NCBI GenBank assembly: GCA_045124465.1
Contig: JBGVLV010000019.1
Coordinates: 1,054 to 65,053, forward strand
Origin: Candidatus Scatosoma sp.
GTDB lineage: Bacteria > Bacillota > Clostridia > Christensenellales > Borkfalkiaceae
Length of the DNA stretch: 64,000 nucleotides
Reading direction: 5' to 3'
Shown here: positions 4,470 to 64,000 of the stretch, piece by piece
How positions within the stretch are numbered: position 1 is the first letter of the stretch
Layout of the letters: each line of letters opens with the position of its first letter
Made by a program: the position numbers and the translations under genes
The notes under the pieces: generated by a model
The model's input: the letters and a program-made list of their open reading frames with translations, nothing else
What the model was told of the DNA's origin: nothing
Databases searched by the model: none

Positions 4470-4984
4470 TGACGTACGCCCTCGCTTTGATCGTACCCCT
4501 GTTGTTCCTGCTCTCGTTCGTATTCGCGCTCTTTAAAAAAGTCAAGCTGTTCGACTGCTTTACGGAGGGCGTGAAAGGCGCGATCCCGCTCATCGTTTCC
4601 ATCTTCCCCTATATCGCGACGGTGACGATGCTTTCCAAGCTTTTCGAGGTGAGCGGACTGGAAAGCAAGCTTACGGACCTGCTCGCGCCCGTGTTCTCTT
4701 TTACGGGCATACCCGACGAGATCGCCCCGCTCCTGCTCGTCAAGCCCCTTTCGGGCAGCGGCGCGATCGCCGTGCTTTCGGAGATACTCGCCCGTTACGG
4801 CGTGGACAGCTATGCCGCGCGGTGCGCGTGCGTGGCGTACGGGTCGTCGGAAACCATTTTCTATATCGGCGCGGTGTATTTCGCGGGTCTGAAACGAAAA
4901 AAACTCACGCTCGCCTTGCTCATCGCCGTGTTTTCCTATCTCGTTTCCGTCGCGTTATGCTGTCTGCTCTGTCGGATTATGTAG
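4469..4984 (+). CDS. spmB: Spore maturation protein B
   Basis: The in-frame ATG at 4469 (MTYALALIVPLLFLL...) lies inside track ORF 3965..4984 and gives a 171-aa hydrophobic protein. It is translationally coupled to spmA. Confidence 0.8.
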   Translation: MTYALALIVPLLFLLSFVFALFKKVKLFDCFTEGVKGAIPLIVSIFPYIATVTMLSKLFEVSGLESKLTDLLAPVFSFTGIPDEIAPLLLVKPLSGSGAIAVLSEILARYGVDSYAARCACVAYGSSETIFYIGAVYFAGLKRKKLTLALLIAVFSYLVSVALCCLLCRIM

Positions 4985-5125
4985 CTTTTGGAAGTTTTTC
5001 TATATCCGAACCCGCAAAAATGTGAGAACGGAACATTTTTTGCGACGTAGATATACTTTTTAACTTTTTTTAAAATTTTCGAAATTTTTCTTTACTTTTT
5101 TCTCCAAACATGATAAAATATATTC

Positions 5126-5241
5126 GTAAATCGGTTGAGGAAACCGAGATACGCAAAACAGCTCATCATTTTCCCCCTTATCATATAGGTAACCGCCTCG
5201 AAGTCGCGAGATTTCGGGGCGGTTATCGTTTACCGTTTTTT
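5126..5241 (+). ncRNA. Candidate small RNA in the AT-rich spmB/glmM convergent spacer
   Basis: A near-consensus promoter lies upstream: TTTACT (5091-5096), a 17-nt spacer, then TGaTAAAAT (-10 at 5114-5119). It is followed by a small hairpin CGGTT-gagga-AACCG and an unpaired C-rich stretch UUUUCCCCCUUAU. A 12-bp hairpin follows (5191-5202 pairing with 5213-5224), then a T-run at 5235-5241. No family is recognised. Confidence 0.2.
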
Positions 5242-5253
5242 CCTCATATTTGA

Positions 5254-5283
5254 AAAGCCTTTCCCGTTCAAGGGAAAGGCTTT
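5254..5283. terminator. Hairpin terminator between convergent spmB and glmM
   Basis: AAAGCCTTTCCC-gttcaa-GGGAAAGGCTTT forms a 12-bp stem, 26 nt beyond the glmM stop. Confidence 0.6.
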
Positions 5284-5309
5284 CGAATTTTAAGTTATCG
5301 AACTTTAAA

Positions 5310-6692
5310 TTATAAGCAATGCCCGTTTTTCTCGATGACGCGCACGACTTCGTCCACGCACGCGGCGCACGTTTCCTTGCTCTCCGCCTCGACCATTACG
5401 CGCACGAGCGGTTCCGTTCCCGATTCGCGGACCAGGATCCTGCCCGTATCGCCCAAGCGTTTCTCCACTTCCTTGACCGCCGCAAGCACTTCGCCGTCCG
5501 ACATCGCCGCCTTTTTGTCCTTGACGCGCATGTTTTTGAGGACTTGCGGGTATACCGTCATCTGTCCCGCGAGCGCGGAAAGGGTCGTCTTTTTGTCGAT
5601 CATCGCCTGCATGATTTTCAGGCTCGTCAAAAGCCCGTCGCCCGTGCACGCGTATTTGGAGAAAATGATATGCCCCGACTGTTCGCCGCCGAGAATATAC
5701 CCCTTTTCCGACATACGCTCGTATACGTATTTGTCCCCGACCGCCGTCTTTTCGTAGTTTATCCCCAGTTCGTCCAGTCCTTTGTACAGACCGAAGTTGG
5801 ACATTATCGTCGTAACGACGGTGTTCCCGATGAGTTTGCCGCGCTCTTTCATATACCGCGCGTAGATATAGATGATCTGATCGCCGTCCACGAGGTTGCC
5901 TTTCTCGTCCACGCAAAGACAACGGTCCGCGTCGCCGTCGAAGGCGAATCCGACGTCCAGACCCTTTTCCACGACGAATTTTTGCAACGCCTCGATATGC
6001 GTCGAGCCTACGCCGTCGTTGATGTTCGTGCCGTCCGGCTCGTTCCCCATTACGAACGTGGTCGCGCCGAGCGCGTCGAACACGCTTTTCGCGATGTTCC
6101 AGCTGCTGCCGTTGGCGCAGTCCAGACCCACTTTCACGCCCTTAAAGCTGTAAATGCCGAGCGAGATCAGATACCCGATATAGCGGTTTCTGCCCGCCAC
6201 GTAGTCCACCGTTCTGCCGATACCGCTCTTTTTCGCGTACGGAACTTCGGTAAGCTCCTGCCCGAACGCGCAGACCTTGCCGTCGAGGTACGCCTCGACG
6301 AGCGCGATCACCTCTTCGTCCATCTTCTCGCCCGCGCCGTTGAACAGCTTGATACCGTTGTCGTAATACGGGTTATGGCTCGCGGAGATCATAATACCGC
6401 AATCGAACCCGTCCGAACGCACCACGTACGCGACCGACGGGGTCGTGGTCACGTGCAAAAGGTAAGCGTCCGCGCCCGAGGATACGATACCGCCCGAAAG
6501 TGCGTATTCGAACATATACCCCGATCTTCTGGTGTCTTTACCGATGACGATACGCGCGCGTTCGCCGCCCTCGCGTTTGACTTTCTCGTTAAAGTACCAG
6601 CCCAAAAACCGACCTACTTTGAACGCGTGTTCCGCCGTTAAGTTCTCGTTCGCCTCGCCGCGAAAACCGTCCGTTCCGAAATATTTTCCCAT
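5310..6692 (-). CDS. glmM: Phosphoglucosamine mutase
   Basis: 460-aa ORF with N-terminal GTDGFRG and the phosphoserine loop SASHNP. Confidence 0.95.
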   Translation of the reverse strand: MGKYFGTDGFRGEANENLTAEHAFKVGRFLGWYFNEKVKREGGERARIVIGKDTRRSGYMFEYALSGGIVSSGADAYLLHVTTTPSVAYVVRSDGFDCGIMISASHNPYYDNGIKLFNGAGEKMDEEVIALVEAYLDGKVCAFGQELTEVPYAKKSGIGRTVDYVAGRNRYIGYLISLGIYSFKGVKVGLDCANGSSWNIAKSVFDALGATTFVMGNEPDGTNINDGVGSTHIEALQKFVVEKGLDVGFAFDGDADRCLCVDEKGNLVDGDQIIYIYARYMKERGKLIGNTVVTTIMSNFGLYKGLDELGINYEKTAVGDKYVYERMSEKGYILGGEQSGHIIFSKYACTGDGLLTSLKIMQAMIDKKTTLSALAGQMTVYPQVLKNMRVKDKKAAMSDGEVLAAVKEVEKRLGDTGRILVRESGTEPLVRVMVEAESKETCAACVDEVVRVIEKNGHCL

Positions 6693-6714
6693 TCTGCTTA
6701 TTTCCTCTTTATTT

Positions 6715-7374
6715 TTATTTTTTAGAAACTATCTCGTTTTTGTTTTTATAAATAGAATTCTCTTTCACCACGCCGCGCACGCACGACAGGGGGTATACGT
6801 TCGTCCGCCGACCGATCACCGTACCGGGGTTAAGCACGCTGTTACAGCCCACTTCCACGAAATCGCCGAGCATCGCGCCCATCTTTTTCAAACCCGTTTC
6901 TATGCGTTCTTCGCCGTCCTTGACGACGATCGGCGTTTTGTCCGACTTTACGTTGGACGTGATCGAACCCGCGCCCATGTGCGATTTGTAGCCGAGTATG
7001 GAATCGCCCACGTAGTTATAATGCGGGGTCTGTACGTTGTCGAACAGAATAACGTTTTTGAGTTCGACGGAGTTGCCGACCACGCAATTTTGCCCGACGA
7101 GCGCGCTGCCGCGCACGAACGCGCAATGCCGAACTTCCGTTCCCGCCCCGACGATACAAGGTGCGCCCAAAAACGCGGTCGGCGCGACTTTCGCCGTTTT
7201 ATGCACCCAGACCTTGGGCGATATTTCTTCGTATTCGTTCTTATCCAGCGTTTCGCCGAGTTCCTCGATGAACGCTTTCAAGCCCGCAAGCGCCTCCCAG
7301 GGGTACTTGAACCGTAAGAGATAGGGTTTTGCCTGCGTATGATCGAGATCGTAAAGATCGTTTATTTCGTACAT
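6715..7374 (-). CDS. Stand-alone left-handed beta-helix (hexapeptide-repeat) acetyltransferase resembling the GlmU C-terminal domain
   Basis: 219-aa ORF with SD AGGAG, ending 22 nt upstream of glmM. Hexapeptide repeats are visible (GAPCIVGAGTEVRHCAFVRGSALVGQNCVVGNSVELKNVILFDN ... GDFVEVGCNSVLNPGTVIG). It has no nucleotidyltransferase domain. Confidence 0.75.
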   Translation of the reverse strand: MYEINDLYDLDHTQAKPYLLRFKYPWEALAGLKAFIEELGETLDKNEYEEISPKVWVHKTAKVAPTAFLGAPCIVGAGTEVRHCAFVRGSALVGQNCVVGNSVELKNVILFDNVQTPHYNYVGDSILGYKSHMGAGSITSNVKSDKTPIVVKDGEERIETGLKKMGAMLGDFVEVGCNSVLNPGTVIGRRTNVYPLSCVRGVVKENSIYKNKNEIVSKK

Positions 7375-7511
7375 TTTCTTCTCCTGTTTTTCATTGACTT
7401 CCCGCCGTTTTGCGGGGTATGTATTCCGAGCGTTGAAAAAACGCCCCCTATTACAGTATATTTCCCGCGAACGGGATACGCGACTTCTTTCGACAAATAT
7501 ATGTTTTTATC

Positions 7512-7540
7512 ATTATAACACACCCGTCCCCGCTTGTCAA
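7512..7540 (-). promoter_or_regulatory. Candidate sigma-A promoter of the acetyltransferase-glmM operon
   Basis: Read on the twin copy at 61155-61183: TTGACA, a 17-nt spacer, then TGtTATAAT (consensus -35, extended -10). A leader of about 135 nt with several hairpins follows. Confidence 0.55.
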
Positions 7541-7631
7541 GAACAGGGCAAACATTTTTTCCGTTTCCGTACGTAGTTTCCGCGCCCCGCACGATTTTTA
7601 TGCCCGCCGCGCAAGGACATAAACTTATAAT

Positions 7632-7662
7632 CCGCCGCCCGTCCGTTTCGGACGGGCGGCGG
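7632..7662 (-). terminator. Terminator hairpin downstream of the flavoprotein gene
   Basis: CCGCCGCCCGTCCG-ttt-CGGACGGGCGGCGG forms a 14-bp GC stem, 16 nt after the stop at 7679. Confidence 0.65.
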
Positions 7663-7678
7663 GAGTTTTTCCGACCGT

Positions 7679-8218
7679 TTATACGTTCTTACCCATTTCG
7701 TAGGCTTGTTTCAAAAGCGCGGGCTTGCCTAAAATCTCGCCCCGCTCCGAAACGCCGTTTCCGAGTATCACGCCTTTCTCCACGCTACCCTCTACACATT
7801 CGGCAAAACCGCGGAAACACGCCAACGTGCCGTCCATCACCGTTTCGCTGTCCTCCGCCGCGGTCGCGATATAATACATATCTTTCCCGACGATCTCCGT
7901 CCACCGCGCCACCGTTCTGTCGATGACCGCTTTGAGCTGGGCGCATATCGAATAGAAATACACGGGGCTTGCCAAAACGATCGCGTCGGCGGCGATCATC
8001 TTTTCCAAGATCTCGCGCATATCGTCGTTGAACGCACACCTGCCCCCGTGGTCGCTGCAAAAATAACAACCCGAACACGGCGCGATCTTCTTTTCCGAAA
8101 CGCGTATTTTCTCCGCGGCGTTACCCGCGTCGAGCGCGCCTTTCATAAACTCGTCGCAAAGAATATCCGAGTTCCCGCCCTTTCTCGGGCTACCCGACAA
8201 AATCAGTACTTTTTTCAT
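7679..8218 (-). CDS. Flavodoxin-like fold NAD(P)H-dependent FMN reductase / iron-sulfur flavoprotein family protein
   Basis: 179-aa ORF with the N-terminus MKKVLILSGSPRKGGNS, the cysteine cluster CSGCYFC, and ASPVYF. Confidence 0.8.
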   Translation of the reverse strand: MKKVLILSGSPRKGGNSDILCDEFMKGALDAGNAAEKIRVSEKKIAPCSGCYFCSDHGGRCAFNDDMREILEKMIAADAIVLASPVYFYSICAQLKAVIDRTVARWTEIVGKDMYYIATAAEDSETVMDGTLACFRGFAECVEGSVEKGVILGNGVSERGEILGKPALLKQAYEMGKNV

Positions 8219-8283
8219 TTCCGTTCTCCTCTCGTTTCCTTTGTAAAATCAAAGCGGGTCAAGCCCGACTTTTCTTTTTCTTC

Positions 8284-8313
8284 ATTATATCACACCACGA
8301 AAACCGAAGTCAA
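8284..8313 (-). promoter_or_regulatory. Candidate sigma-A promoter of the flavoprotein gene
   Basis: Read on the twin at 60382-60411: TTGACT, an 18-nt spacer, then TGaTATAAT. Confidence 0.45.
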
Positions 8314-8366
8314 CTTTTCGCGAACACTTTTCTTGCCCAACCGCATTTTCCGTTTTTGCATAAAAA

Positions 8367-8398
8367 ATATCTTGCCACCACACGGGTAGACAAGATAT
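8367..8398 (-). terminator. Rho-independent terminator of the zinc-ribbon gene
   Basis: Read on the twin at 60297-60328: ATATCTTG...CAAGATAT stem followed by TTTTTT. Confidence 0.6.
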
Positions 8399-8415
8399 TT
8401 TTTCATTTTTTCCGT

Positions 8416-8751
8416 TTAACATAACGCCATAGCCAAGGGGACTTCCGCCACAAGCGACGCCATTAAACTTCCCAAGAAAATCGCAAAAATGAGATAACAC
8501 GCCACGCTGACGATAACGCCGATCAACGCGCCCTTTCCCGCCGACTTCGCTTTTAAAGGCGTTTCGTTCTTCCAGCACAAGTACAAGATCAGTCCGATCA
8601 ACGGGAAGAAAAAGCCCAACACCGCAAAACCCATATTCGGCGCGTCCGGCTTTTGCACCTCGGCTCTCGCTCCCTCCACCTGTCGCCCGCAATACACGCA
8701 AACCACCGCATCGTCGTTGATTTCTTTTCCGCATTTGCTACAATACTTCAT
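8416..8751 (-). CDS. Zinc-ribbon domain membrane protein
   Basis: I moved the start to the ATG at 8751 (GGAGG 6 nt upstream); the track start is 10 codons further up. The protein has a CSKCG...CVYCG zinc ribbon followed by two hydrophobic helices. Confidence 0.75.
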   Translation of the reverse strand: MKYCSKCGKEINDDAVVCVYCGRQVEGARAEVQKPDAPNMGFAVLGFFFPLIGLILYLCWKNETPLKAKSAGKGALIGVIVSVACYLIFAIFLGSLMASLVAEVPLAMALC

Positions 8752-8782
8752 TTGTAGACCTCCAAATTTATTTTGTAACATA

Positions 8783-8811
8783 ATTATATCCTACATTTTG
8801 TAGGAAGTCAA
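8783..8811 (-). promoter_or_regulatory. Candidate sigma-A promoter of the zinc-ribbon gene, with an operator inside the spacer
   Basis: Read on the twin at 59884-59912: TTGACT, a 17-nt spacer, then TATAAT. The spacer is essentially the palindrome CCTACAaaaTGTAGG. Confidence 0.55.
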
Positions 8812-8833
8812 GTGTTTTCCTACATTTTGTAGT
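8790..8833. promoter_or_regulatory. Two copies of a 15-bp palindromic operator-like site (CCTACA-N3-TGTAGG)
   Basis: The site at 8790-8804 (CCTACATTTTGTAGG) is perfect. The site at 8819-8833 (CCTACATTTTGTAGT) has one mismatch. Their centres are 29 bp apart, in the divergent XRE / zinc-ribbon intergenic region. Confidence 0.55.
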
Positions 8834-8844
8834 AAGATAACTTT

Positions 8845-9063
8845 ATGAAAAACAATTATTTTGGCAAAACGTTAAAAGAATTGCGGCTTGAAAAAGGATT
8901 ATCTCAACAGAAATTAGGAGAAATTTTTCACGTTTGCAATCAGACGGTGAGTTTTTGGGAGCTTGGCAGTCGCGAACCCGATTTGGACACGTTGCTCCTT
9001 ATCGCACGGTTTTTCGACGTGACGACGGACTACCTTCTAAACGGCGATACGCTTTCTCTTTAA
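8845..9063 (+). CDS. XRE (Cro/C1-type) helix-turn-helix transcriptional regulator
   Basis: 72-aa ORF with the HTH segment LSQQKLGEIFHVCNQTVSFWELG. No SD is visible upstream of the ATG. Confidence 0.85.
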   Translation: MKNNYFGKTLKELRLEKGLSQQKLGEIFHVCNQTVSFWELGSREPDLDTLLLIARFFDVTTDYLLNGDTLSL

Positions 9064-9106
9064 AAACGCGCCGAGAAAACTTGCCTTCGATACGAAAGAC
9101 AAAAAA

Positions 9107-9137
9107 ATATCCCGTCGGGAAAATCCCGACGGGATAT
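9107..9137. terminator. Bidirectional terminator between convergent XRE and PEPCK genes
   Basis: ATATCCCGTCGGG-aaaat-CCCGACGGGATAT, flanked by an A7 run and a T-rich run. Confidence 0.7.
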
Positions 9138-9151
9138 TTGTTCACGAAATA

Positions 9152-10942
9152 TTATTTCGCGCAGTTCTTTTTGAGGATTTCGAGATTTTCCATGATCTCT
9201 TTCGGCATCTTGTCGCCGAAGTTTTCCGCATAGTACTTCTCGATCTCTTCCGCCTCTGCCGCCCAGCGCGCTTTGTCTACGACAAGGAGCTTGTCGAGCG
9301 TAGCCGCGTCGATATCGCAGTTCTCGATGTTGATGTCTTTCGCATAGGGAAGATAACCGATCGCCGTTTCCTGCGCGTCTACCTTATCTTCGCAACGATC
9401 CAAGATCCAGTCGAGCACGCGCATATTGTCGCCGAATCCGGGCCACATAAAGTTCCCGTTCTCGTCCTGACGGAACCAGTTTACGTTGAAGATCTTGGGC
9501 TGTTTGCTCTTCTCGACCTTCGCGCCCATATCGATCCAGTGCTGGAAGTACTGATCTACCGAGTAGCCCATGAAAGGTTTCATAGCCATCGGATCGTGAC
9601 GGAGCACGCCGACCGCACCGGTAGCCGCCGCCGTCGTTTCGGACGACATGATCGTTCCGACGAACGTACCGTGGTTCCAGTCTCTCGACTGATATACGAG
9701 CGGGGTGGTCGTCGCGCGACGTCCGCCGAAGATGATCGCGGAAAGAGGTACGCCCGCTTTGGAGTTGAACTCGGGCGAGATGCAAGGGCAGTTCTCCGCG
9801 GGAGCGGTGAAACGGGAGTTGGGATGCGCCGCGGGGTGCTTGCCGTCCGCGTTCATATCGGGCGTCCATTCGTTACCCTTCCAGTCGATGAGGTGCTTAG
9901 GCGCCTCTTTCGTAAGTTTTTCCCACCAAACGGTGCCGTCCTCGGGGTTGTAAGCCACGTTCGTGAAGATCGTGCCTTTCTTCGTGGACGCCAAAGCGTT
10001 GGGGTTGGATTTTTCGTTCGTACCGGGCGCAACGCCGAAGAAACCGTTTTCGGGGTTCGCAGCCCAAAGTCTGCCGTCCTCGCCTACGCGGATCCAAGCG
10101 ATGTCGTCGCCGACGCATTGTACTTTATAGCCCGCGTCGAGGTACTGCTTGGGAGGAATGAGCATTGCAAGGTTGGTCTTACCGCAAGCGGAAGGGAACG
10201 CAGCCGCAACGTATTTCATTTCCTTGTCCTGAGGGCGCTTTACGCCGAGAATGAGCATATGCTCCGCCATCCAGCCCTCTTTTCTGCCGAGGTTGGTCGC
10301 GATACGGAGCGCGAAACACTTCTTGCCGAGGAGCACGTTACCGCCGTAAGCGGAGTTCACGGAAATGATCGTGTTGTCTTCGGGGAAGTGCATGATATAT
10401 CTCTTTTCGGGGTCTACGTTACATTTCGCGTGGAAACCCTTGACGAAATCGCCGTCAACGCCGAGCTGGTCGAGGCACATTTTGCCTACTCTCGTCATGA
10501 TCATCATGTTGAGAACGACGTAGATGGAATCGGTGATCTCGATACCGATCTTGGAGAAAGGCGAACCGACAACGCCCATCGAATAAGGGATAACGTACAT
10601 CGTTCTGCCCTTGTAAGCGCCTTTCGCGATCTCGTTGACCATCGCGTACGCGTCCTTGGGGGCTTTCCACTTAACGATGGAATGAGGGAGCGCGTCCTCT
10701 TCGTTCTCGCAGCAGATGAACGTTCTGTCCTCTACGCGCGCAACGTCGTTTTCCGCGGTACGGTGATAGTAGCAGTCGGGAAGAAGTTCCTGATTGAGCT
10801 TAATGATCTCGCCCGTAGCGCAAGCCTCTTCGCGGAGCTGATCTCTCTGCGCGTCGCTGCCGTCGATCCAAACGACTTTGTCGGGCTGTGCAAACGCCTG
10901 ACAGTCCGCTACGAATTGAAGAACTTTCTTGTTGTTAGTCAT
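9152..10942 (-). CDS. pck: Phosphoenolpyruvate carboxykinase (GTP)
   Basis: 596-aa ORF with the GTP-PEPCK P-loop FPSACGKTN. Its length and overall pattern are typical of the GTP-dependent family. Confidence 0.95.
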   Translation of the reverse strand: MTNNKKVLQFVADCQAFAQPDKVVWIDGSDAQRDQLREEACATGEIIKLNQELLPDCYYHRTAENDVARVEDRTFICCENEEDALPHSIVKWKAPKDAYAMVNEIAKGAYKGRTMYVIPYSMGVVGSPFSKIGIEITDSIYVVLNMMIMTRVGKMCLDQLGVDGDFVKGFHAKCNVDPEKRYIMHFPEDNTIISVNSAYGGNVLLGKKCFALRIATNLGRKEGWMAEHMLILGVKRPQDKEMKYVAAAFPSACGKTNLAMLIPPKQYLDAGYKVQCVGDDIAWIRVGEDGRLWAANPENGFFGVAPGTNEKSNPNALASTKKGTIFTNVAYNPEDGTVWWEKLTKEAPKHLIDWKGNEWTPDMNADGKHPAAHPNSRFTAPAENCPCISPEFNSKAGVPLSAIIFGGRRATTTPLVYQSRDWNHGTFVGTIMSSETTAAATGAVGVLRHDPMAMKPFMGYSVDQYFQHWIDMGAKVEKSKQPKIFNVNWFRQDENGNFMWPGFGDNMRVLDWILDRCEDKVDAQETAIGYLPYAKDINIENCDIDAATLDKLLVVDKARWAAEAEEIEKYYAENFGDKMPKEIMENLEILKKNCAK

Positions 10943-11034
10943 AGTTTATCTCCTTAAAATGTTATTATTTTTTCTCTTGAATTTGCTTTGGCGAAATTTG
11001 GAAAATCTGAAAATCCCCTATTTCCACCAAATAC

Positions 11035-11063
11035 ATTATACCATAAAAAAAATCGATTGTAAA
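11035..11063 (-). promoter_or_regulatory. Candidate sigma-A promoter of pck
   Basis: Read on the twin at 57632-57660: TTTACA, a 17-nt spacer, then TGgTATAAT. Confidence 0.5.
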
Positions 11064-11093
11064 CAGTTTTTTGAAAAATTTTTCGAATAATTC

Positions 11094-11143
11094 AAAAAAA
11101 GGTGGCAGTCCCCTCTTGTAATTTTCCGAAAGCGTGATAAACT
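11094..11143 (+). promoter_or_regulatory. Candidate promoter of the 97-aa gene, preceded by an A-tract plus GTGGCAGT element
   Basis: The order is A7 (11094-11100), GTGGCAGT (11102-11109), 6 nt, TTGTAA (11116-11121), a 16-nt spacer, then TGaTAAACT (-10 at 11138-11143). The leuA promoter has the same A-tract/GTGGCAGT/6 nt/TTG architecture. Confidence 0.4.
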
Positions 11144-11179
11144 ATTTGCGCTACTTACCCAAAAACAGGAGGAACTTCT

Positions 11180-11473
11180 ATGAAAAACAAATACACCGAC
11201 AACCGTCTTGCGGAGGAATTCGATCTCATCGTCCTCACCAACGACGCCCACCTTTCCAAAGGTCTGCCCACGGGTAGCTTGGGAACGCTCACCTATTCGT
11301 ATACGGGTCTGGGCAGACCGATGTACGGCGAGTTCGAGCTTGCGGACGGCGAACGCGTGGAAGAACCGCTGAAATTCCGCGACTTCCGCGTACTCGACGA
11401 GAAGAACGAACGCGACCTTTCCCTTATTATGACCTATCTTTTGTCCCGTCAACCGCTCAAAAGGAAAGCTTAA
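11180..11473 (+). CDS. Hypothetical small protein (97 aa)
   Basis: SD AGGAGG lies 6 nt upstream of the ATG and the gene is monocistronic between pck and proB. No family is recognised. Confidence 0.6.
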   Translation: MKNKYTDNRLAEEFDLIVLTNDAHLSKGLPTGSLGTLTYSYTGLGRPMYGEFELADGERVEEPLKFRDFRVLDEKNERDLSLIMTYLLSRQPLKRKA

Positions 11474-11507
11474 CGCGATTTTCCCGCGTTTTCGTGCCCG
11501 TCCGCGC

Positions 11508-11536
11508 TTGACAAACCCGACTTTATACGTTATACT
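11508..11536 (+). promoter_or_regulatory. Candidate sigma-A promoter of proBAC
   Basis: TTGACA (11508-11513), a 17-nt spacer, then TATACT (11531-11536). Confidence 0.5.
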
Positions 11537-11595
11537 ATATAATAAATAACCATCGAGAAAATCTTTTATTCCGCGGTCTTGTATCGGGAAAAGGA

Positions 11596-12375
11596 ATGGA
11601 AACGAATATGAGATTAGTCATAAAAGTGGGCACTTCCACGTTGGCGCACGCGACGGGGCGCTTGAATATCCGGCTTACGGGCGAGCTGTGCCGCGTGATA
11701 AGCGATCTGAAAAACGCGGGCAACGAGGTCGTACTCGTATCCTCGGGCGCGATCGGCATGGGCGTGGGCAAACTCGCGCTCAAAGAACGGCCCGCCGATA
11801 TTCCCACCAAACAGGCGGCGGCGGCGGTCGGTCAATGCGAACTGATGTACACGTACGATCGGTTGTTCGCCGAATACGGTCACACCGTCGCGCAAATCCT
11901 GCTCACGGGTTCGGATTTCACGGCGGACGACAGGCACGAGAATTTCAACAACACCATCAAACGGCTCTTGGAGCTGGGCGCATTGCCCGTCGTCAACGAG
12001 AACGACACCATCGCGACGGAAGAGATCAAGGTCGGCGACAACGACACCCTCTCCGCTTTGGTGGCGGTGAGCGTGAAAGCGGATCTTCTCGTCATCTTGT
12101 CGGACGTGGACGGTCTGTATTCCGCCGACCCGCATAAAGACGGGAACGCGAAACTCATCGAGGAAGTGCGCGGAGTATCGGAAGAAACGCTCGCGCTCGC
12201 GGGCGGCGCGGGTTCGGCACTCGGCACGGGCGGTATGAAAACCAAGCTCAAAGCGGCGCAATTATGCGGTGCGGCGGGTTGCGACATGGTCATCGCGAAC
12301 GGCGAAGACCCCGAACTTTTATACGACATCGTAACAGGCAAGAAAGGCGGCTACACGCGGTTTTTCGCAAAATGA
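11596..12375 (+). CDS. proB: Glutamate 5-kinase (short form, no PUA domain)
   Basis: 259-aa ORF with VIKVGTSTL, VSSGAIGMG and NENDT motifs. The start could instead be the ATG at 11608. Confidence 0.9.
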   Translation: METNMRLVIKVGTSTLAHATGRLNIRLTGELCRVISDLKNAGNEVVLVSSGAIGMGVGKLALKERPADIPTKQAAAAVGQCELMYTYDRLFAEYGHTVAQILLTGSDFTADDRHENFNNTIKRLLELGALPVVNENDTIATEEIKVGDNDTLSALVAVSVKADLLVILSDVDGLYSADPHKDGNAKLIEEVRGVSEETLALAGGAGSALGTGGMKTKLKAAQLCGAAGCDMVIANGEDPELLYDIVTGKKGGYTRFFAK

Positions 12376-56319: not shown

Positions 56320-57099
56320 TCATTTTGCGAAAAACCGCGTGTAGCCGCCTTTCTTGCCTGTTACGATGTCGTATAAAAGTTCGGGGTCTTCGCCGTTCGC
56401 GATGACCATGTCGCAACCCGCCGCACCGCATAATTGCGCCGCTTTGAGCTTGGTTTTCATACCGCCCGTGCCGAGTGCCGAACCCGCGCCGCCCGCGAGC
56501 GCGAGCGTTTCTTCCGATACTCCGCGCACTTCCTCGATGAGTTTCGCGTTCCCGTCTTTATGCGGGTCGGCGGAATACAGACCGTCCACGTCCGACAAGA
56601 TGACGAGAAGATCCGCTTTCACGCTCACCGCCACCAAAGCGGAGAGGGTGTCGTTGTCGCCGACCTTGATCTCTTCCGTCGCGATGGTGTCGTTCTCGTT
56701 GACGACGGGCAATGCGCCCAGCTCCAAGAGCCGTTTGATGGTGTTGTTGAAATTCTCGTGCCTGTCGTCCGCCGTGAAATCCGAACCCGTGAGCAGGATT
56801 TGCGCGACGGTGTGACCGTATTCGGCGAACAACCGATCGTACGTGTACATCAGTTCGCATTGACCGACCGCCGCCGCCGCCTGTTTGGTGGGAATATCGG
56901 CGGGCCGTTCTTTGAGCGCGAGTTTGCCCACGCCCATGCCGATCGCGCCCGAGGATACGAGTACGACCTCGTTGCCCGCGTTTTTCAGATCGCTTATCAC
57001 GCGGCACAGCTCGCCCGTAAGCCGGATATTCAAGCGCCCCGTCGCGTGCGCCAACGTGGAAGTGCCCACTTTTATGACTAATCTCATATTCGTTTCCAT
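56320..57099 (-). CDS. proB: Glutamate 5-kinase (twin)
   Basis: Exact reverse-complement twin of 11596..12375. Confidence 0.9.
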   Translation of the reverse strand: METNMRLVIKVGTSTLAHATGRLNIRLTGELCRVISDLKNAGNEVVLVSSGAIGMGVGKLALKERPADIPTKQAAAAVGQCELMYTYDRLFAEYGHTVAQILLTGSDFTADDRHENFNNTIKRLLELGALPVVNENDTIATEEIKVGDNDTLSALVAVSVKADLLVILSDVDGLYSADPHKDGNAKLIEEVRGVSEETLALAGGAGSALGTGGMKTKLKAAQLCGAAGCDMVIANGEDPELLYDIVTGKKGGYTRFFAK

Positions 57100-57221
57100 T
57101 CCTTTTCCCGATACAAGACCGCGGAATAAAAGATTTTCTCGATGGTTATTTATTATATAGTATAACGTATAAAGTCGGGTTTGTCAAGCGCGGACGGGCA
57201 CGAAAACGCGGGAAAATCGCG

Positions 57222-57515
57222 TTAAGCTTTCCTTTTGAGCGGTTGACGGGACAAAAGATAGGTCATAATAAGGGAAAGGTCGCGTTCGTTCTTCTCGTCG
57301 AGTACGCGGAAGTCGCGGAATTTCAGCGGTTCTTCCACGCGTTCGCCGTCCGCAAGCTCGAACTCGCCGTACATCGGTCTGCCCAGACCCGTATACGAAT
57401 AGGTGAGCGTTCCCAAGCTACCCGTGGGCAGACCTTTGGAAAGGTGGGCGTCGTTGGTGAGGACGATGAGATCGAATTCCTCCGCAAGACGGTTGTCGGT
57501 GTATTTGTTTTTCAT
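57222..57515 (-). CDS. Hypothetical small protein, 97 aa (twin)
   Basis: Exact reverse-complement twin of 11180..11473. Confidence 0.6.
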   Translation of the reverse strand: MKNKYTDNRLAEEFDLIVLTNDAHLSKGLPTGSLGTLTYSYTGLGRPMYGEFELADGERVEEPLKFRDFRVLDEKNERDLSLIMTYLLSRQPLKRKA

Positions 57516-57752
57516 AGAAGTTCCTCCTGTTTTTGGGTAAGTAGCGCAAATAGTTTATCACGCTTTCGGAAAATTACAAGAGGGGACTGCCACCTTTTTT
57601 TGAATTATTCGAAAAATTTTTCAAAAAACTGTTTACAATCGATTTTTTTTATGGTATAATGTATTTGGTGGAAATAGGGGATTTTCAGATTTTCCAAATT
57701 TCGCCAAAGCAAATTCAAGAGAAAAAATAATAACATTTTAAGGAGATAAACT

Positions 57753-59543
57753 ATGACTAACAACAAGAAAGTTCTTCAATTCGTAGCGGACTGTCAGGCG
57801 TTTGCACAGCCCGACAAAGTCGTTTGGATCGACGGCAGCGACGCGCAGAGAGATCAGCTCCGCGAAGAGGCTTGCGCTACGGGCGAGATCATTAAGCTCA
57901 ATCAGGAACTTCTTCCCGACTGCTACTATCACCGTACCGCGGAAAACGACGTTGCGCGCGTAGAGGACAGAACGTTCATCTGCTGCGAGAACGAAGAGGA
58001 CGCGCTCCCTCATTCCATCGTTAAGTGGAAAGCCCCCAAGGACGCGTACGCGATGGTCAACGAGATCGCGAAAGGCGCTTACAAGGGCAGAACGATGTAC
58101 GTTATCCCTTATTCGATGGGCGTTGTCGGTTCGCCTTTCTCCAAGATCGGTATCGAGATCACCGATTCCATCTACGTCGTTCTCAACATGATGATCATGA
58201 CGAGAGTAGGCAAAATGTGCCTCGACCAGCTCGGCGTTGACGGCGATTTCGTCAAGGGTTTCCACGCGAAATGTAACGTAGACCCCGAAAAGAGATATAT
58301 CATGCACTTCCCCGAAGACAACACGATCATTTCCGTGAACTCCGCTTACGGCGGTAACGTGCTCCTCGGCAAGAAGTGTTTCGCGCTCCGTATCGCGACC
58401 AACCTCGGCAGAAAAGAGGGCTGGATGGCGGAGCATATGCTCATTCTCGGCGTAAAGCGCCCTCAGGACAAGGAAATGAAATACGTTGCGGCTGCGTTCC
58501 CTTCCGCTTGCGGTAAGACCAACCTTGCAATGCTCATTCCTCCCAAGCAGTACCTCGACGCGGGCTATAAAGTACAATGCGTCGGCGACGACATCGCTTG
58601 GATCCGCGTAGGCGAGGACGGCAGACTTTGGGCTGCGAACCCCGAAAACGGTTTCTTCGGCGTTGCGCCCGGTACGAACGAAAAATCCAACCCCAACGCT
58701 TTGGCGTCCACGAAGAAAGGCACGATCTTCACGAACGTGGCTTACAACCCCGAGGACGGCACCGTTTGGTGGGAAAAACTTACGAAAGAGGCGCCTAAGC
58801 ACCTCATCGACTGGAAGGGTAACGAATGGACGCCCGATATGAACGCGGACGGCAAGCACCCCGCGGCGCATCCCAACTCCCGTTTCACCGCTCCCGCGGA
58901 GAACTGCCCTTGCATCTCGCCCGAGTTCAACTCCAAAGCGGGCGTACCTCTTTCCGCGATCATCTTCGGCGGACGTCGCGCGACGACCACCCCGCTCGTA
59001 TATCAGTCGAGAGACTGGAACCACGGTACGTTCGTCGGAACGATCATGTCGTCCGAAACGACGGCGGCGGCTACCGGTGCGGTCGGCGTGCTCCGTCACG
59101 ATCCGATGGCTATGAAACCTTTCATGGGCTACTCGGTAGATCAGTACTTCCAGCACTGGATCGATATGGGCGCGAAGGTCGAGAAGAGCAAACAGCCCAA
59201 GATCTTCAACGTAAACTGGTTCCGTCAGGACGAGAACGGGAACTTTATGTGGCCCGGATTCGGCGACAATATGCGCGTGCTCGACTGGATCTTGGATCGT
59301 TGCGAAGATAAGGTAGACGCGCAGGAAACGGCGATCGGTTATCTTCCCTATGCGAAAGACATCAACATCGAGAACTGCGATATCGACGCGGCTACGCTCG
59401 ACAAGCTCCTTGTCGTAGACAAAGCGCGCTGGGCGGCAGAGGCGGAAGAGATCGAGAAGTACTATGCGGAAAACTTCGGCGACAAGATGCCGAAAGAGAT
59501 CATGGAAAATCTCGAAATCCTCAAAAAGAACTGCGCGAAATAA
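57753..59543 (+). CDS. pck: Phosphoenolpyruvate carboxykinase (GTP) (twin)
   Basis: Exact reverse-complement twin of 9152..10942. Confidence 0.95.
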   Translation: MTNNKKVLQFVADCQAFAQPDKVVWIDGSDAQRDQLREEACATGEIIKLNQELLPDCYYHRTAENDVARVEDRTFICCENEEDALPHSIVKWKAPKDAYAMVNEIAKGAYKGRTMYVIPYSMGVVGSPFSKIGIEITDSIYVVLNMMIMTRVGKMCLDQLGVDGDFVKGFHAKCNVDPEKRYIMHFPEDNTIISVNSAYGGNVLLGKKCFALRIATNLGRKEGWMAEHMLILGVKRPQDKEMKYVAAAFPSACGKTNLAMLIPPKQYLDAGYKVQCVGDDIAWIRVGEDGRLWAANPENGFFGVAPGTNEKSNPNALASTKKGTIFTNVAYNPEDGTVWWEKLTKEAPKHLIDWKGNEWTPDMNADGKHPAAHPNSRFTAPAENCPCISPEFNSKAGVPLSAIIFGGRRATTTPLVYQSRDWNHGTFVGTIMSSETTAAATGAVGVLRHDPMAMKPFMGYSVDQYFQHWIDMGAKVEKSKQPKIFNVNWFRQDENGNFMWPGFGDNMRVLDWILDRCEDKVDAQETAIGYLPYAKDINIENCDIDAATLDKLLVVDKARWAAEAEEIEKYYAENFGDKMPKEIMENLEILKKNCAK

Positions 59544-59631
59544 TATTTCGTGAACAAATATCCCGTCGGGATTTTCCCGACGGGATATTTTTTTGTCTTT
59601 CGTATCGAAGGCAAGTTTTCTCGGCGCGTTT

Positions 59632-59850
59632 TTAAAGAGAAAGCGTATCGCCGTTTAGAAGGTAGTCCGTCGTCACGTCGAAAAACCGTGCGATAAGGAG
59701 CAACGTGTCCAAATCGGGTTCGCGACTGCCAAGCTCCCAAAAACTCACCGTCTGATTGCAAACGTGAAAAATTTCTCCTAATTTCTGTTGAGATAATCCT
59801 TTTTCAAGCCGCAATTCTTTTAACGTTTTGCCAAAATAATTGTTTTTCAT
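59632..59850 (-). CDS. XRE family HTH regulator (twin)
   Basis: Exact reverse-complement twin of 8845..9063. Confidence 0.85.
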   Translation of the reverse strand: MKNNYFGKTLKELRLEKGLSQQKLGEIFHVCNQTVSFWELGSREPDLDTLLLIARFFDVTTDYLLNGDTLSL

Positions 59851-59861
59851 AAAGTTATCTT

Positions 59862-59905
59862 ACTACAAAATGTAGGAAAACACTTGACTTCCTACAAAAT
59901 GTAGG
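59862..59905. promoter_or_regulatory. Two CCTACA-N3-TGTAGG operator-like palindromes (twin)
   Basis: Exact reverse-complement twin of 8790..8833. The site at 59891-59905 fills the spacer of the promoter TTGACT (59884)...TATAAT (59907). Confidence 0.55.
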
Positions 59906-59943
59906 ATATAATTATGTTACAAAATAAATTTGGAGGTCTACAA

Positions 59944-60279
59944 ATGAAGTATTGTAGCAAATGCGGAAAAGAAATCAACGACGATGCGGTGGTTTGCGTG
60001 TATTGCGGGCGACAGGTGGAGGGAGCGAGAGCCGAGGTGCAAAAGCCGGACGCGCCGAATATGGGTTTTGCGGTGTTGGGCTTTTTCTTCCCGTTGATCG
60101 GACTGATCTTGTACTTGTGCTGGAAGAACGAAACGCCTTTAAAAGCGAAGTCGGCGGGAAAGGGCGCGTTGATCGGCGTTATCGTCAGCGTGGCGTGTTA
60201 TCTCATTTTTGCGATTTTCTTGGGAAGTTTAATGGCGTCGCTTGTGGCGGAAGTCCCCTTGGCTATGGCGTTATGTTAA
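59944..60279 (+). CDS. Zinc-ribbon domain membrane protein (twin)
   Basis: Exact reverse-complement twin of 8416..8751. Confidence 0.75.
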   Translation: MKYCSKCGKEINDDAVVCVYCGRQVEGARAEVQKPDAPNMGFAVLGFFFPLIGLILYLCWKNETPLKAKSAGKGALIGVIVSVACYLIFAIFLGSLMASLVAEVPLAMALC

Positions 60280-60476
60280 ACGGAAAAAATGAAAAAATAT
60301 CTTGTCTACCCGTGTGGTGGCAAGATATTTTTTATGCAAAAACGGAAAATGCGGTTGGGCAAGAAAAGTGTTCGCGAAAAGTTGACTTCGGTTTTCGTGG
60401 TGTGATATAATGAAGAAAAAGAAAAGTCGGGCTTGACCCGCTTTGATTTTACAAAGGAAACGAGAGGAGAACGGAA

Positions 60477-61016
60477 ATGAAAAAAGTACTGATTTTGTCG
60501 GGTAGCCCGAGAAAGGGCGGGAACTCGGATATTCTTTGCGACGAGTTTATGAAAGGCGCGCTCGACGCGGGTAACGCCGCGGAGAAAATACGCGTTTCGG
60601 AAAAGAAGATCGCGCCGTGTTCGGGTTGTTATTTTTGCAGCGACCACGGGGGCAGGTGTGCGTTCAACGACGATATGCGCGAGATCTTGGAAAAGATGAT
60701 CGCCGCCGACGCGATCGTTTTGGCAAGCCCCGTGTATTTCTATTCGATATGCGCCCAGCTCAAAGCGGTCATCGACAGAACGGTGGCGCGGTGGACGGAG
60801 ATCGTCGGGAAAGATATGTATTATATCGCGACCGCGGCGGAGGACAGCGAAACGGTGATGGACGGCACGTTGGCGTGTTTCCGCGGTTTTGCCGAATGTG
60901 TAGAGGGTAGCGTGGAGAAAGGCGTGATACTCGGAAACGGCGTTTCGGAGCGGGGCGAGATTTTAGGCAAGCCCGCGCTTTTGAAACAAGCCTACGAAAT
61001 GGGTAAGAACGTATAA
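60477..61016 (+). CDS. Flavodoxin-like NAD(P)H-dependent FMN reductase family protein (twin)
   Basis: Exact reverse-complement twin of 7679..8218. Confidence 0.8.
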   Translation: MKKVLILSGSPRKGGNSDILCDEFMKGALDAGNAAEKIRVSEKKIAPCSGCYFCSDHGGRCAFNDDMREILEKMIAADAIVLASPVYFYSICAQLKAVIDRTVARWTEIVGKDMYYIATAAEDSETVMDGTLACFRGFAECVEGSVEKGVILGNGVSERGEILGKPALLKQAYEMGKNV

Positions 61017-61320
61017 ACGGTCGGAAAAACTCCCGCCGCCCGTCCGAAACGGACGGGCGGCGGATTATAAGTTTATGTCCTTGCGCGGCGGGCATAAAAA
61101 TCGTGCGGGGCGCGGAAACTACGTACGGAAACGGAAAAAATGTTTGCCCTGTTCTTGACAAGCGGGGACGGGTGTGTTATAATGATAAAAACATATATTT
61201 GTCGAAAGAAGTCGCGTATCCCGTTCGCGGGAAATATACTGTAATAGGGGGCGTTTTTTCAACGCTCGGAATACATACCCCGCAAAACGGCGGGAAGTCA
61301 ATGAAAAACAGGAGAAGAAA

Positions 61321-61980
61321 ATGTACGAAATAAACGATCTTTACGATCTCGATCATACGCAGGCAAAACCCTATCTCTTACGGTTCAAGTACCCCTGGGA
61401 GGCGCTTGCGGGCTTGAAAGCGTTCATCGAGGAACTCGGCGAAACGCTGGATAAGAACGAATACGAAGAAATATCGCCCAAGGTCTGGGTGCATAAAACG
61501 GCGAAAGTCGCGCCGACCGCGTTTTTGGGCGCACCTTGTATCGTCGGGGCGGGAACGGAAGTTCGGCATTGCGCGTTCGTGCGCGGCAGCGCGCTCGTCG
61601 GGCAAAATTGCGTGGTCGGCAACTCCGTCGAACTCAAAAACGTTATTCTGTTCGACAACGTACAGACCCCGCATTATAACTACGTGGGCGATTCCATACT
61701 CGGCTACAAATCGCACATGGGCGCGGGTTCGATCACGTCCAACGTAAAGTCGGACAAAACGCCGATCGTCGTCAAGGACGGCGAAGAACGCATAGAAACG
61801 GGTTTGAAAAAGATGGGCGCGATGCTCGGCGATTTCGTGGAAGTGGGCTGTAACAGCGTGCTTAACCCCGGTACGGTGATCGGTCGGCGGACGAACGTAT
61901 ACCCCCTGTCGTGCGTGCGCGGCGTGGTGAAAGAGAATTCTATTTATAAAAACAAAAACGAGATAGTTTCTAAAAAATAA
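61321..61980 (+). CDS. GlmU-C-terminal-like hexapeptide-repeat acetyltransferase (twin)
   Basis: Exact reverse-complement twin of 6715..7374. Confidence 0.75.
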   Translation: MYEINDLYDLDHTQAKPYLLRFKYPWEALAGLKAFIEELGETLDKNEYEEISPKVWVHKTAKVAPTAFLGAPCIVGAGTEVRHCAFVRGSALVGQNCVVGNSVELKNVILFDNVQTPHYNYVGDSILGYKSHMGAGSITSNVKSDKTPIVVKDGEERIETGLKKMGAMLGDFVEVGCNSVLNPGTVIGRRTNVYPLSCVRGVVKENSIYKNKNEIVSKK

Positions 61981-62002
61981 AAATAAAGAGGAAATAAGCA
62001 GA

Positions 62003-63385
62003 ATGGGAAAATATTTCGGAACGGACGGTTTTCGCGGCGAGGCGAACGAGAACTTAACGGCGGAACACGCGTTCAAAGTAGGTCGGTTTTTGGGCTGGTA
62101 CTTTAACGAGAAAGTCAAACGCGAGGGCGGCGAACGCGCGCGTATCGTCATCGGTAAAGACACCAGAAGATCGGGGTATATGTTCGAATACGCACTTTCG
62201 GGCGGTATCGTATCCTCGGGCGCGGACGCTTACCTTTTGCACGTGACCACGACCCCGTCGGTCGCGTACGTGGTGCGTTCGGACGGGTTCGATTGCGGTA
62301 TTATGATCTCCGCGAGCCATAACCCGTATTACGACAACGGTATCAAGCTGTTCAACGGCGCGGGCGAGAAGATGGACGAAGAGGTGATCGCGCTCGTCGA
62401 GGCGTACCTCGACGGCAAGGTCTGCGCGTTCGGGCAGGAGCTTACCGAAGTTCCGTACGCGAAAAAGAGCGGTATCGGCAGAACGGTGGACTACGTGGCG
62501 GGCAGAAACCGCTATATCGGGTATCTGATCTCGCTCGGCATTTACAGCTTTAAGGGCGTGAAAGTGGGTCTGGACTGCGCCAACGGCAGCAGCTGGAACA
62601 TCGCGAAAAGCGTGTTCGACGCGCTCGGCGCGACCACGTTCGTAATGGGGAACGAGCCGGACGGCACGAACATCAACGACGGCGTAGGCTCGACGCATAT
62701 CGAGGCGTTGCAAAAATTCGTCGTGGAAAAGGGTCTGGACGTCGGATTCGCCTTCGACGGCGACGCGGACCGTTGTCTTTGCGTGGACGAGAAAGGCAAC
62801 CTCGTGGACGGCGATCAGATCATCTATATCTACGCGCGGTATATGAAAGAGCGCGGCAAACTCATCGGGAACACCGTCGTTACGACGATAATGTCCAACT
62901 TCGGTCTGTACAAAGGACTGGACGAACTGGGGATAAACTACGAAAAGACGGCGGTCGGGGACAAATACGTATACGAGCGTATGTCGGAAAAGGGGTATAT
63001 TCTCGGCGGCGAACAGTCGGGGCATATCATTTTCTCCAAATACGCGTGCACGGGCGACGGGCTTTTGACGAGCCTGAAAATCATGCAGGCGATGATCGAC
63101 AAAAAGACGACCCTTTCCGCGCTCGCGGGACAGATGACGGTATACCCGCAAGTCCTCAAAAACATGCGCGTCAAGGACAAAAAGGCGGCGATGTCGGACG
63201 GCGAAGTGCTTGCGGCGGTCAAGGAAGTGGAGAAACGCTTGGGCGATACGGGCAGGATCCTGGTCCGCGAATCGGGAACGGAACCGCTCGTGCGCGTAAT
63301 GGTCGAGGCGGAGAGCAAGGAAACGTGCGCCGCGTGCGTGGACGAAGTCGTGCGCGTCATCGAGAAAAACGGGCATTGCTTATAA
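62003..63385 (+). CDS. glmM: Phosphoglucosamine mutase (twin)
   Basis: Exact reverse-complement twin of 5310..6692. Confidence 0.95.
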   Translation: MGKYFGTDGFRGEANENLTAEHAFKVGRFLGWYFNEKVKREGGERARIVIGKDTRRSGYMFEYALSGGIVSSGADAYLLHVTTTPSVAYVVRSDGFDCGIMISASHNPYYDNGIKLFNGAGEKMDEEVIALVEAYLDGKVCAFGQELTEVPYAKKSGIGRTVDYVAGRNRYIGYLISLGIYSFKGVKVGLDCANGSSWNIAKSVFDALGATTFVMGNEPDGTNINDGVGSTHIEALQKFVVEKGLDVGFAFDGDADRCLCVDEKGNLVDGDQIIYIYARYMKERGKLIGNTVVTTIMSNFGLYKGLDELGINYEKTAVGDKYVYERMSEKGYILGGEQSGHIIFSKYACTGDGLLTSLKIMQAMIDKKTTLSALAGQMTVYPQVLKNMRVKDKKAAMSDGEVLAAVKEVEKRLGDTGRILVRESGTEPLVRVMVEAESKETCAACVDEVVRVIEKNGHCL

Positions 63386-63453
63386 TTTAAAGTTCGATAA
63401 CTTAAAATTCGAAAGCCTTTCCCTTGAACGGGAAAGGCTTTTCAAATATGAGG

Positions 63454-63569
63454 AAAAAACGGTAAACGATAACCGCCCCGAAATCTCGCGACTTCGAGGC
63501 GGTTACCTATATGATAAGGGGGAAAATGATGAGCTGTTTTGCGTATCTCGGTTTCCTCAACCGATTTAC
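63454..63569 (-). ncRNA. Candidate small RNA (twin)
   Basis: Exact reverse-complement twin of 5126..5241. Confidence 0.2.
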
Positions 63570-63710
63570 GAATATATTTTATCATGTTTGGAGAAAAAAG
63601 TAAAGAAAAATTTCGAAAATTTTAAAAAAAGTTAAAAAGTATATCTACGTCGCAAAAAATGTTCCGTTCTCACATTTTTGCGGGTTCGGATATAGAAAAA
63701 CTTCCAAAAG

Positions 63711-64000
63711 CTACATAATCCGACAGAGCAGACAGCATAACGCGACGGAAACGAGATAGGAAAACACGGCGATGAGCAAGGCGAGCGTGAGTTTTTTTCG
63801 TTTCAGACCCGCGAAATACACCGCGCCGATATAGAAAATGGTTTCCGACGACCCGTACGCCACGCACGCGCACCGCGCGGCATAGCTGTCCACGCCGTAA
63901 CGGGCGAGTATCTCCGAAAGCACGGCGATCGCGCCGCTGCCCGAAAGGGGCTTGACGAGCAGGAGCGGGGCGATCTCGTCGGGTATGCCCGTAAAAGAGA
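63711..64000 (-). CDS. spmB: Spore maturation protein B, N-terminally truncated by the window edge (twin)
   Basis: Reverse-complement twin of 4695..4984. The C-terminal sequence ...AVLSEILARYGVDSYAARCACVAYGSSETIFYIGAVYFAGLKRKK...CRIM is identical. Confidence 0.8.
   Translation of the reverse strand, partial: SFTGIPDEIAPLLLVKPLSGSGAIAVLSEILARYGVDSYAARCACVAYGSSETIFYIGAVYFAGLKRKKLTLALLIAVFSYLVSVALCCLLCRIM

Follow-up and report, generated by a model that had tools for sequence, protein, structure and literature searches.

A perfect palindrome of at least 2 × 29.65 kb in a Candidatus Scatosoma contig, centred on a native 32-bp palindrome and most likely a technical artefact

Palindromic contigs have been met before in assembled genomes. 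In SPAdes assemblies of M. bovis, 81 whole-contig palindromes were removed and judged to be assembly errors (PMC9455707), and palindromic contigs in single-cell genome assemblies have likewise been judged artefacts (bioRxiv 10.1101/2023.06.06.543983). Here we describe a comparable structure in a 64,000-nucleotide stretch, hereafter the window, of contig JBGVLV010000019.1 from the Candidatus Scatosoma sp. assembly GCA_045124465.1. Positions 4695 to 34347 of the window are the exact reverse complement of positions 34348 to 64000. Comparing each base x with the complement of base 68695-x for x = 4695 to 34347, we found neither a mismatch nor an indel in 29,653 positions, and this full alignment of the arms bears out the claim of a first-pass annotation, made from the letters alone, that the window holds a perfect, spacer-less palindrome of at least 2 × 29.65 kb.

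The palindrome is present and perfect in the record and almost certainly not present in the organism. All technical routes taken together, it is very probably an artefact, and the route that we favour, to which we assign a probability of roughly 0.55, is a turn-back of the assembly graph at a native palindromic terminator.

Geometry of the palindrome and the hairpin at its axis

The axis of symmetry lies between 34347 and 34348, with no spacer (...GAACTTACG on its left and CGTAAGTTC... on its right). The right arm is cut at the window end (64000), and the mirror of positions 1-4694 would fall at 64001-68694; no second junction occurs within the 29.65 kb of the right arm. The 116 nt that span the axis were predicted to fold into a single uninterrupted hairpin (-99.2 kcal/mol, z = -22), which, together with the identity of the arms, excludes a chance origin. 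Base composition skews are mirrored about the axis, as the symmetry requires. The pairs of open reading frames (ORFs) quoted in the first-pass annotation and their constant coordinate sum of 68695 are correct. The coordinates of two of its hand-checked noncoding pairs were inconsequentially off by one: positions 5041-5100 pair with 63595-63654, and positions 23756-23815 pair with 44880-44939.

The native sequence at the site was established from 45 loci in MEGAHIT, SPAdes-style, and Logan assemblies and one NCBI metagenome-assembled genome (MAG) assembly, gathered by look-up with the 127-amino-acid (aa) P-II-like protein encoded beside the axis and with four other proteins of the window. The arm-overlapping loci share 99.1 to 99.8% identity with the window and thus belong to the same species. 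As the native reference we used 44.9 kb of ERZ27303357:k141_537032, rebuilt from three overlapping loci. Window positions 1-34363 are collinear with this reference at 99.5 to 99.6% identity, with three exceptions, namely, an 863-bp strain-specific insertion at 8238-9100 that has no counterpart in the native contigs compared; a 157-bp leuD-leuB intergenic segment of the reference that is absent from the window at 18446/18451, leaving a leuD-leuB gap of 5 bp in the window's strain; and a 27-bp tandem array near 23,700 that differs in copy number. Native contigs of 118 and 218 kb extend further to the left than window position 1.

To the right, collinearity stops at a single base. All native alignments end at window base 34363, the first non-native base is 34364, and from there on the only native match of the right arm is to the left flank, on its minus strand. 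Twenty same-species contigs cross the site. Each of them goes on with TTTATTCGGA into a 155-aa gene, and none (0/20) is mirrored; the same continuation was seen in the additional read-through contigs L036, L037, L041, and L043 and in 9 bases of L042. The comparison with related genomes that the first-pass annotation had proposed, namely, to see what natively follows the P-II genes, thus has an answer: a convergent 155-aa ORF comes first, and in most contigs it is followed by queH, a 262-aa ORF, feoB/feoA, an iron-dependent repressor, a queuosine-synthesis gene (PF02547), and ruvB-ruvA-ruvC, while in a few strains the 155-aa ORF is followed by inserted elements. No part of this native right flank (155-aa gene, queH, feoAB, or ruvBAC) was found in the window by alignment to the native contigs.

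What lies at the axis is itself native. The central 32 bp, 34332-34363 (CCGCCCCGAACTTACG to the left of the axis and CGTAAGTTCGGGGCGG to its right), form a perfect palindrome in the native genome too, and the centre of this native palindrome is the axis of the large one. The first-pass annotation had missed this, and it is the reason that non-native sequence begins only at 34364 and not at the axis. Native DNA reads ...AAGAAACG CCGCCCCGAACTTACGCGTAAGTTCGGGGCGG TTTATTCGGATCG..., and the window reads ...AAGAAACG CCGCCCCGAACTTACGCGTAAGTTCGGGGCGG CGTTTCTT..., so that the mirror junction is the 34-mer GCCGCCCCGAACTTACGCGTAAGTTCGGGGCGGC (G + palindrome + C), as opposed to the native 34-mer GCCGCCCCGAACTTACGCGTAAGTTCGGGGCGGT (G + palindrome + T). 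The 32-bp palindrome is perfect in the native contigs except in L003 and L026, both from one sample, which have a substitution in the loop.

Folding of an 86-nt native stretch (-33.5 kcal/mol) predicts a hairpin with a 14-bp G+C-rich stem and a 4-nt loop. It fits a terminator-like consensus in a scan and lies between convergent genes, 3' of the last P-II-like gene. Within the 44.9 kb of native DNA, the 32 bp of this hairpin are the longest perfect palindrome, the runner-up measuring 16 bp. Four other hairpins of comparable strength are present there (12- to 15-bp stems), but their loops are non-palindromic and none of them is the axis. A randomly placed axis would strike the centre of the 32-bp palindrome about once in 45,000 times, and the position of the axis on this sole 32-bp palindrome therefore indicates that the large palindrome was nucleated by this hairpin.

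Other assemblies also stumble at this place. Three independent Logan contigs, L040, L044, and L045 (SRR35015316, SRR22560191, and SRR27361824), all end at base 30 of the 32 palindrome bases; MAG contig L042 (GCA_045119435.1) breaks 9 bp past the hairpin; and MEGAHIT contig L039 (ERZ27303180:k141_1570592) breaks exactly where the hairpin starts, in the poly-C run GAAACGCCCCCCCCCC. This run resembles an error of sequencing or base calling in the G+C-rich DNA of the hairpin. Assemblers thus demonstrably have difficulty at this place.

Separately, one sample carries foreign A+T-rich DNA at 10543-10869 of locus L038 (ERZ27303373:k141_160206), inside the left half of the palindrome (...CCGCCCCGAACTT before the point of entry and TGAAGTGAACCC... 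after it). An Rfam scan gave no match for this segment, which could be either a mobile element that entered the hairpin or a further misjoin there.

Origin of the palindrome and consequences for the record

If an assembler can produce the window from a genome that holds each arm once, no chimeric DNA need be invoked. We constructed a hypothetical single-copy genome from window positions 1-34363 and the native right flank, counted k-mers on both strands, and looked for window k-mers missing from it. None was missing at k = 21, 29, 31, 32, or 33; one was missing at k = 34 (position 34331), and k - 33 were missing for larger k. At k of 33 or less, the de Bruijn graph of an ordinary genome therefore permits a walk that spells the entire 64-kb window, and chimeric DNA is unnecessary.

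Such a walk could arise as follows. In a de Bruijn graph with k of 33 or less, the two halves of a perfect palindrome are the same nodes traversed in opposite directions, and a path entering the hairpin from the left flank X can exit either to the true right flank Y or to the reverse complement of X. An assembler that took the path X to hairpin to rc(X) would emit the same nodes twice, which would make the arms base-identical, spacer-free, and tens of kilobases long. We infer that the source assembly used or passed through k of 33 or less and that no real molecule carries the junction. The observations agree with a turn-back of this kind: the arms are exact reverse complements with neither spacer nor indels, the axis sits on a genuine perfect palindrome (32 bp, with no novel k-mers at k of 33 or less), independent assemblies continue in non-mirrored form, and the palindrome is the node at which other assemblies break (the three Logan contigs, L042, and L039). 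For the Logan assemblies we take k to be 31, and with that value the shared end of the three contigs would, by our own reasoning, be exactly the predicted branch base, as the node pal[1..31] would have two predecessors in the k = 31 graph, one on the left flank (G+pal[1..30]) and one on the reverse complement of the right flank (A+pal[1..30]).

The same hairpin could also have acted on DNA rather than on a graph. A strand ending in the terminator hairpin may have snapped back and been extended in vitro, during whole-genome amplification (phi29 multiple-displacement amplification [MDA]), library end-repair or fill-in, or long-read library preparation, with the assembler following real chimeric molecules; we regard this as possible but as the less probable explanation. 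A 3' end formed by the second arm of the hairpin would prime itself on the 14-bp G+C-rich stem and yield the observed junction with neither deletion nor spacer, and fold-back molecules would supply the novel junction k-mers required at k of 34 or more. MDA chimeras are mostly inverted and are primed at 2 to 21 nt of complementarity (PMC1855051), chimeric reads at inverted repeats and palindromes arise from library fragmentation and end-repair (PMC10908179), fold-back artefacts are found in both ONT and PacBio reads (PMC12870357), and palindromic contigs are known from MDA-based single-cell genomes (bioRxiv 10.1101/2023.06.06.543983). The window does have its inverted junction at a short self-complementary priming site (14-bp stem, 4-nt loop). 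It does not have the typical MDA form, in which inverted chimeras usually come with an intervening deletion (PMC1855051), as the mirror starts at the first base past the hairpin. The absence of a deletion is, however, not decisive against an in vitro route, because direct snap-back leaves none.

Our preference between the two routes rests on the choice of axis. A polymerase could have snapped back at any of the approximately five comparably strong hairpins, but the one that became the axis is the sole perfect even palindrome of the set. A graph self-loop needs a perfect even palindrome and a polymerase does not; no self-loop is possible at the other strong hairpins because their loops are non-palindromic. 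For this reason we lean towards the graph route. The base-perfect identity of the arms over 29.65 kb likewise favours it, and noisy long reads would rarely yield arms identical over that length.

A missed long-read hairpin adapter, which the first-pass annotation had listed among the possible causes, was rejected, because adapter sequence would then remain at the axis and the axis would fall at whatever point a fragment happened to end, whereas it is the centre of the one native 32-bp palindrome.

Several points weigh against the graph turn-back. Most current assemblers finish at k of 55 or more, and at such values 22 or more junction k-mers would need a source, be it contigs carried over from a low-k stage or chimeric reads. 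Same-species MEGAHIT (k119/k141) and SPAdes-style assemblies mostly crossed the hairpin correctly. Further, the junction TAAGTTCGGGGCGGCGTTTCTTTTTC had no match in the genome_contigs, metagenome_contigs, and viral_contigs collections, so that recurrence of the artefact is unsupported. This last point weighs little: the native junction also had no match in genome_contigs, nor had the bare 32-bp palindrome in metagenome_contigs (JGI), and the species is therefore absent from or masked in those collections.

Could the duplication be real? Here a double-strand break to the right of the terminator would have been resected and the hairpin-capped end replicated into a giant palindrome, which we consider highly unlikely. 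The duplication is centred on a pre-existing palindrome, the junction geometry is exactly that predicted by hairpin capping, and a strain-variable integration site only 855 bp to the right could be the source of a break; moreover, the same route has been followed in Escherichia coli when both SbcCD and RecA were missing, starting from an interrupted palindrome of 246 bp (PMC3315005). Neither sbcCD nor recA is among the genes of the window. Those events, however, were rare rearrangements that required a double mutant and a palindrome some eight times the length of this one (PMC3315005). Bacterial hairpin nucleases attack long perfect palindromes; in the E. coli chromosome, SbcCD processes them as hairpins (PMC4245961). 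Every other hairpin-crossing contig of the species is native. In a real product, queH, feoAB, and ruvBAC would be separated or lost, the arm would be cut off from essential genes, and the result would be an unresolvable mirror-dimer replicon. The 29.65 kb of the right arm show no second junction, and a rare subpopulation would not have become the consensus contig. That the sampled population truly contained a break beside the P-II operon terminator, capped by its hairpin and copied into a mirror duplication of at least 59 kb, abundant enough to assemble, is thus an outcome to which we give very little credence; if true, a pathway known only from E. coli sbcCD recA mutants would thereby gain its first natural case, in an uncultured anaerobe. 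Palindromic amplification, which the first-pass annotation named as one way for the structure to be real, is accordingly retained only as a low-probability alternative.

The other way that it named, a hairpin-ended linear replicon, fares worse. Telomere-resolvase substrates are perfect palindromes, and replicated junctions are head-to-head, so a perfect head-to-head palindrome such as this one would fit either a hairpin telomere or the replicated intermediate of a linear replicon of the N15 or Borrelia type. However, the native molecule does not end at the palindrome: 20 contigs run through it into chromosomal housekeeping genes, which contradicts the idea. The gene content is core metabolism (ilv, leu, pro, glmM, and metG), and no telomere resolvase appears in the precomputed, non-exhaustive Pfam listings, which cover approximately 35 kb on the left and 10 kb on the right. 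We regard this origin as scarcely credible.

An error after assembly, or a deliberate construction, would explain the perfect symmetry, whether through scaffolding, through a circularisation script, or through joining of the record to its own reverse complement. A join at an arbitrary contig end would, however, meet the centre of the 32-bp palindrome only about once in 45,000 times. For such a join to be plausible, the contig must already have ended within the hairpin, like the Logan contigs, and even then the join would not restore the exact 32-bp palindrome unless the ends overlapped on it. Such an error is therefore very improbable.

The first-pass opinion that an artefact is most likely is thereby strengthened, as the axis lies on a native palindrome and the 20 read-through contigs continue non-mirrored. 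Its count of 27 duplicated genes plus part of spmB is about right, the mirrored set comprising 26 genes called in native contigs, one strain-specific 149-aa ORF, and part of spmB. These approximately 27 genes, among them glmM, the pro, ilv, and leu pathways, and the P-II pair, are most likely not duplicated, and as biology the palindrome is most likely without significance. Users of the record should ignore what it shows of gene duplication, synteny, and copy number from 34364 on, since the record would give wrong copy number, completeness, contamination, synteny, and pangenome counts. Conversely, the real neighbours of the P-II operon, i.e., the 155-aa ORF followed mostly by queH, feoAB, the queuosine-synthesis gene, and ruvBAC, are missing from it. 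More generally, natural palindromic terminators of approximately 30 bp are predictable trouble spots for assembly; at this one hairpin, three Logan contigs break at one base, two other contigs end at the hairpin or shortly past it, and in one record the sequence doubles back. A simple test for artefacts of this type is to ask whether the axis holds a native perfect palindrome and, if so, whether the contig contains any k-mer beyond those of the single-copy genome.

Gene content and other features of the arm and its flank

The left arm carries glmM, a hexapeptide transferase gene, genes for an FMN reductase and PEPCK, proBAC, ridA, an ilvA-like gene, a gene for a DUF815 AAA protein, leuBDC, ilvD, ilvC, ilvN, ilvB, leuA, ilvE, and genes for an Na/Ala symporter, an aldose epimerase, a DUF1538 transporter, and two small P-II-like proteins. 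An identical copy of the 127-aa P-II-like protein is indexed in 83 blocks of a public collection. The principal features of the window are listed in Table 1.

Table 1. Coordinates of the principal features of the 64-kb window
Feature	Coordinates	Strand	Evidence or remarks
Segment in native orientation; its mirror lies beyond the window	1..4694	+	tatD (-), metG (-), spmA, start of spmB; Pfam; collinear with native contigs, about 99.6% identity
Left arm, ordinary chromosomal DNA in native order	4695..34347	+	Collinear with ERZ27303357:k141_537032, 99.5-99.6% identity
Last native gene before the axis, 127-aa P-II-like protein	33925..34308	+	Mirror 34387-34770 (-); weak PF00543 match
Sole non-native junction, 34-mer G + palindrome + C	34331..34364		k-mer comparison, k = 34
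Native 32-bp perfect palindrome CCGCCCCGAACTTACGCGTAAGTTCGGGGCGG, terminator-like hairpin between convergent genes	34332..34363		Native contigs, folding
Mirror copy, non-native part of the right arm	34364..64000	-	Reverse complement of 4695-34331, 0 mismatches

The operon-like set at 31976-34308 (+) that ends at the hairpin encodes a 507-aa DUF1538 membrane protein followed by the 136-aa and 127-aa proteins. The 507-aa protein looks like UmpA and UmpB, the subunits of an Na,Li,K/H+ antiporter, joined in one chain, with scores far under the curated cut-offs; the 136-aa protein has no family assignment, and the 127-aa protein has a weak P-II / PG0541 transporter-associated match. Judging from these sequence similarities, the set may encode a transporter with P-II-like regulators.

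Two RNA elements were predicted in the arm by Rfam. A T-box leader (RF00230, 94.5 bits, with a gathering score of 93) at 27316-27559 (-), mirrored at 41136-41379 (+), lies 5' of the 2-isopropylmalate synthase gene (25597-27315/27375, -), the first gene of the leuA-ilvB cluster. A glycine riboswitch aptamer (RF00504, 52.3 bits) at 30548-30665 (-) lies 5' of an Na+/alanine symporter family gene (28878-30440, -). The ilvB-ilvN intergenic region holds two 27-bp tandem arrays, at 23568-23630 (2.3 copies) and 23689-23780 (3.4 copies), which vary among strains in both copy number and sequence and at which the native-contig alignments break. Within the branched-chain amino-acid cluster, a gene for a 393-aa DUF815/AAA ATPase (16174-17355, -) is situated between the ilvA-like gene and leuB, a position that is kept in the native contigs.

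The 863-bp strain-specific insertion carries the 149-aa ORF (8285-8734, -), for which no Pfam or NCBIfam match was found. A 3,041-bp Logan contig (SRR25030065), the sole exact-strain match, is 100% identical to window positions 5187-8227 and ends at 8227, just short of this insertion, which may be a repeated or mobile segment.

On the native right flank, the strain-variable integration site mentioned above lies between the 155-aa ORF and queH and starts 855 bp to the right of the P-II stop codon (L008/L032/L037 and L009). One strain has a large serine recombinase there (Resolvase/Recombinase/Zn_ribbon_recom/DUF4368), and another has DUF3990 and HTH genes. As a cause of the graph break, this site is suggestive only.

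Comparison with described palindromes

Replicated telomere junctions of N15, PY54, and Borrelia resemble the window in being perfect head-to-head palindromes without a spacer. Unlike in those systems, native molecules here read through the palindrome, which itself resembles an ordinary intrinsic terminator.

The inverted duplication of E. coli (Darmon et al. 2010, PMC3315005) shares with the window its centring on a pre-existing palindrome, and there a hairpin-capped end was replicated. That case was physically shown and was a rare event in a double mutant with an engineered 246-bp interrupted palindrome, whereas ours concerns a 32-bp natural terminator and is known as assembled sequence alone.

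Chimeras from MDA or library preparation are alike in that a 3' end primes on a short complementary stretch and in that natural inverted repeats and palindromes are hot spots. The MDA chimeras of Lasken and Stockwell (2007, PMC1855051) typically show a deletion and 2 to 21 nt of complementarity, whereas the window has a 14-bp stem and no deletion.

Palindromic contigs of short-read assemblies, such as those of M. bovis and of single-cell genomes, have, like the window, head-to-head genes in identical DNA, and both papers treated them as artefacts that inflate gene counts. The published cases are whole-contig palindromes, whereas the symmetry here is seen within the 64-kb window only. For those contigs, the content of the axis is unreported; in the window, a native 32-bp palindromic terminator occupies the axis, and the condition for a turn-back there, k of 33 or less, is demonstrated.

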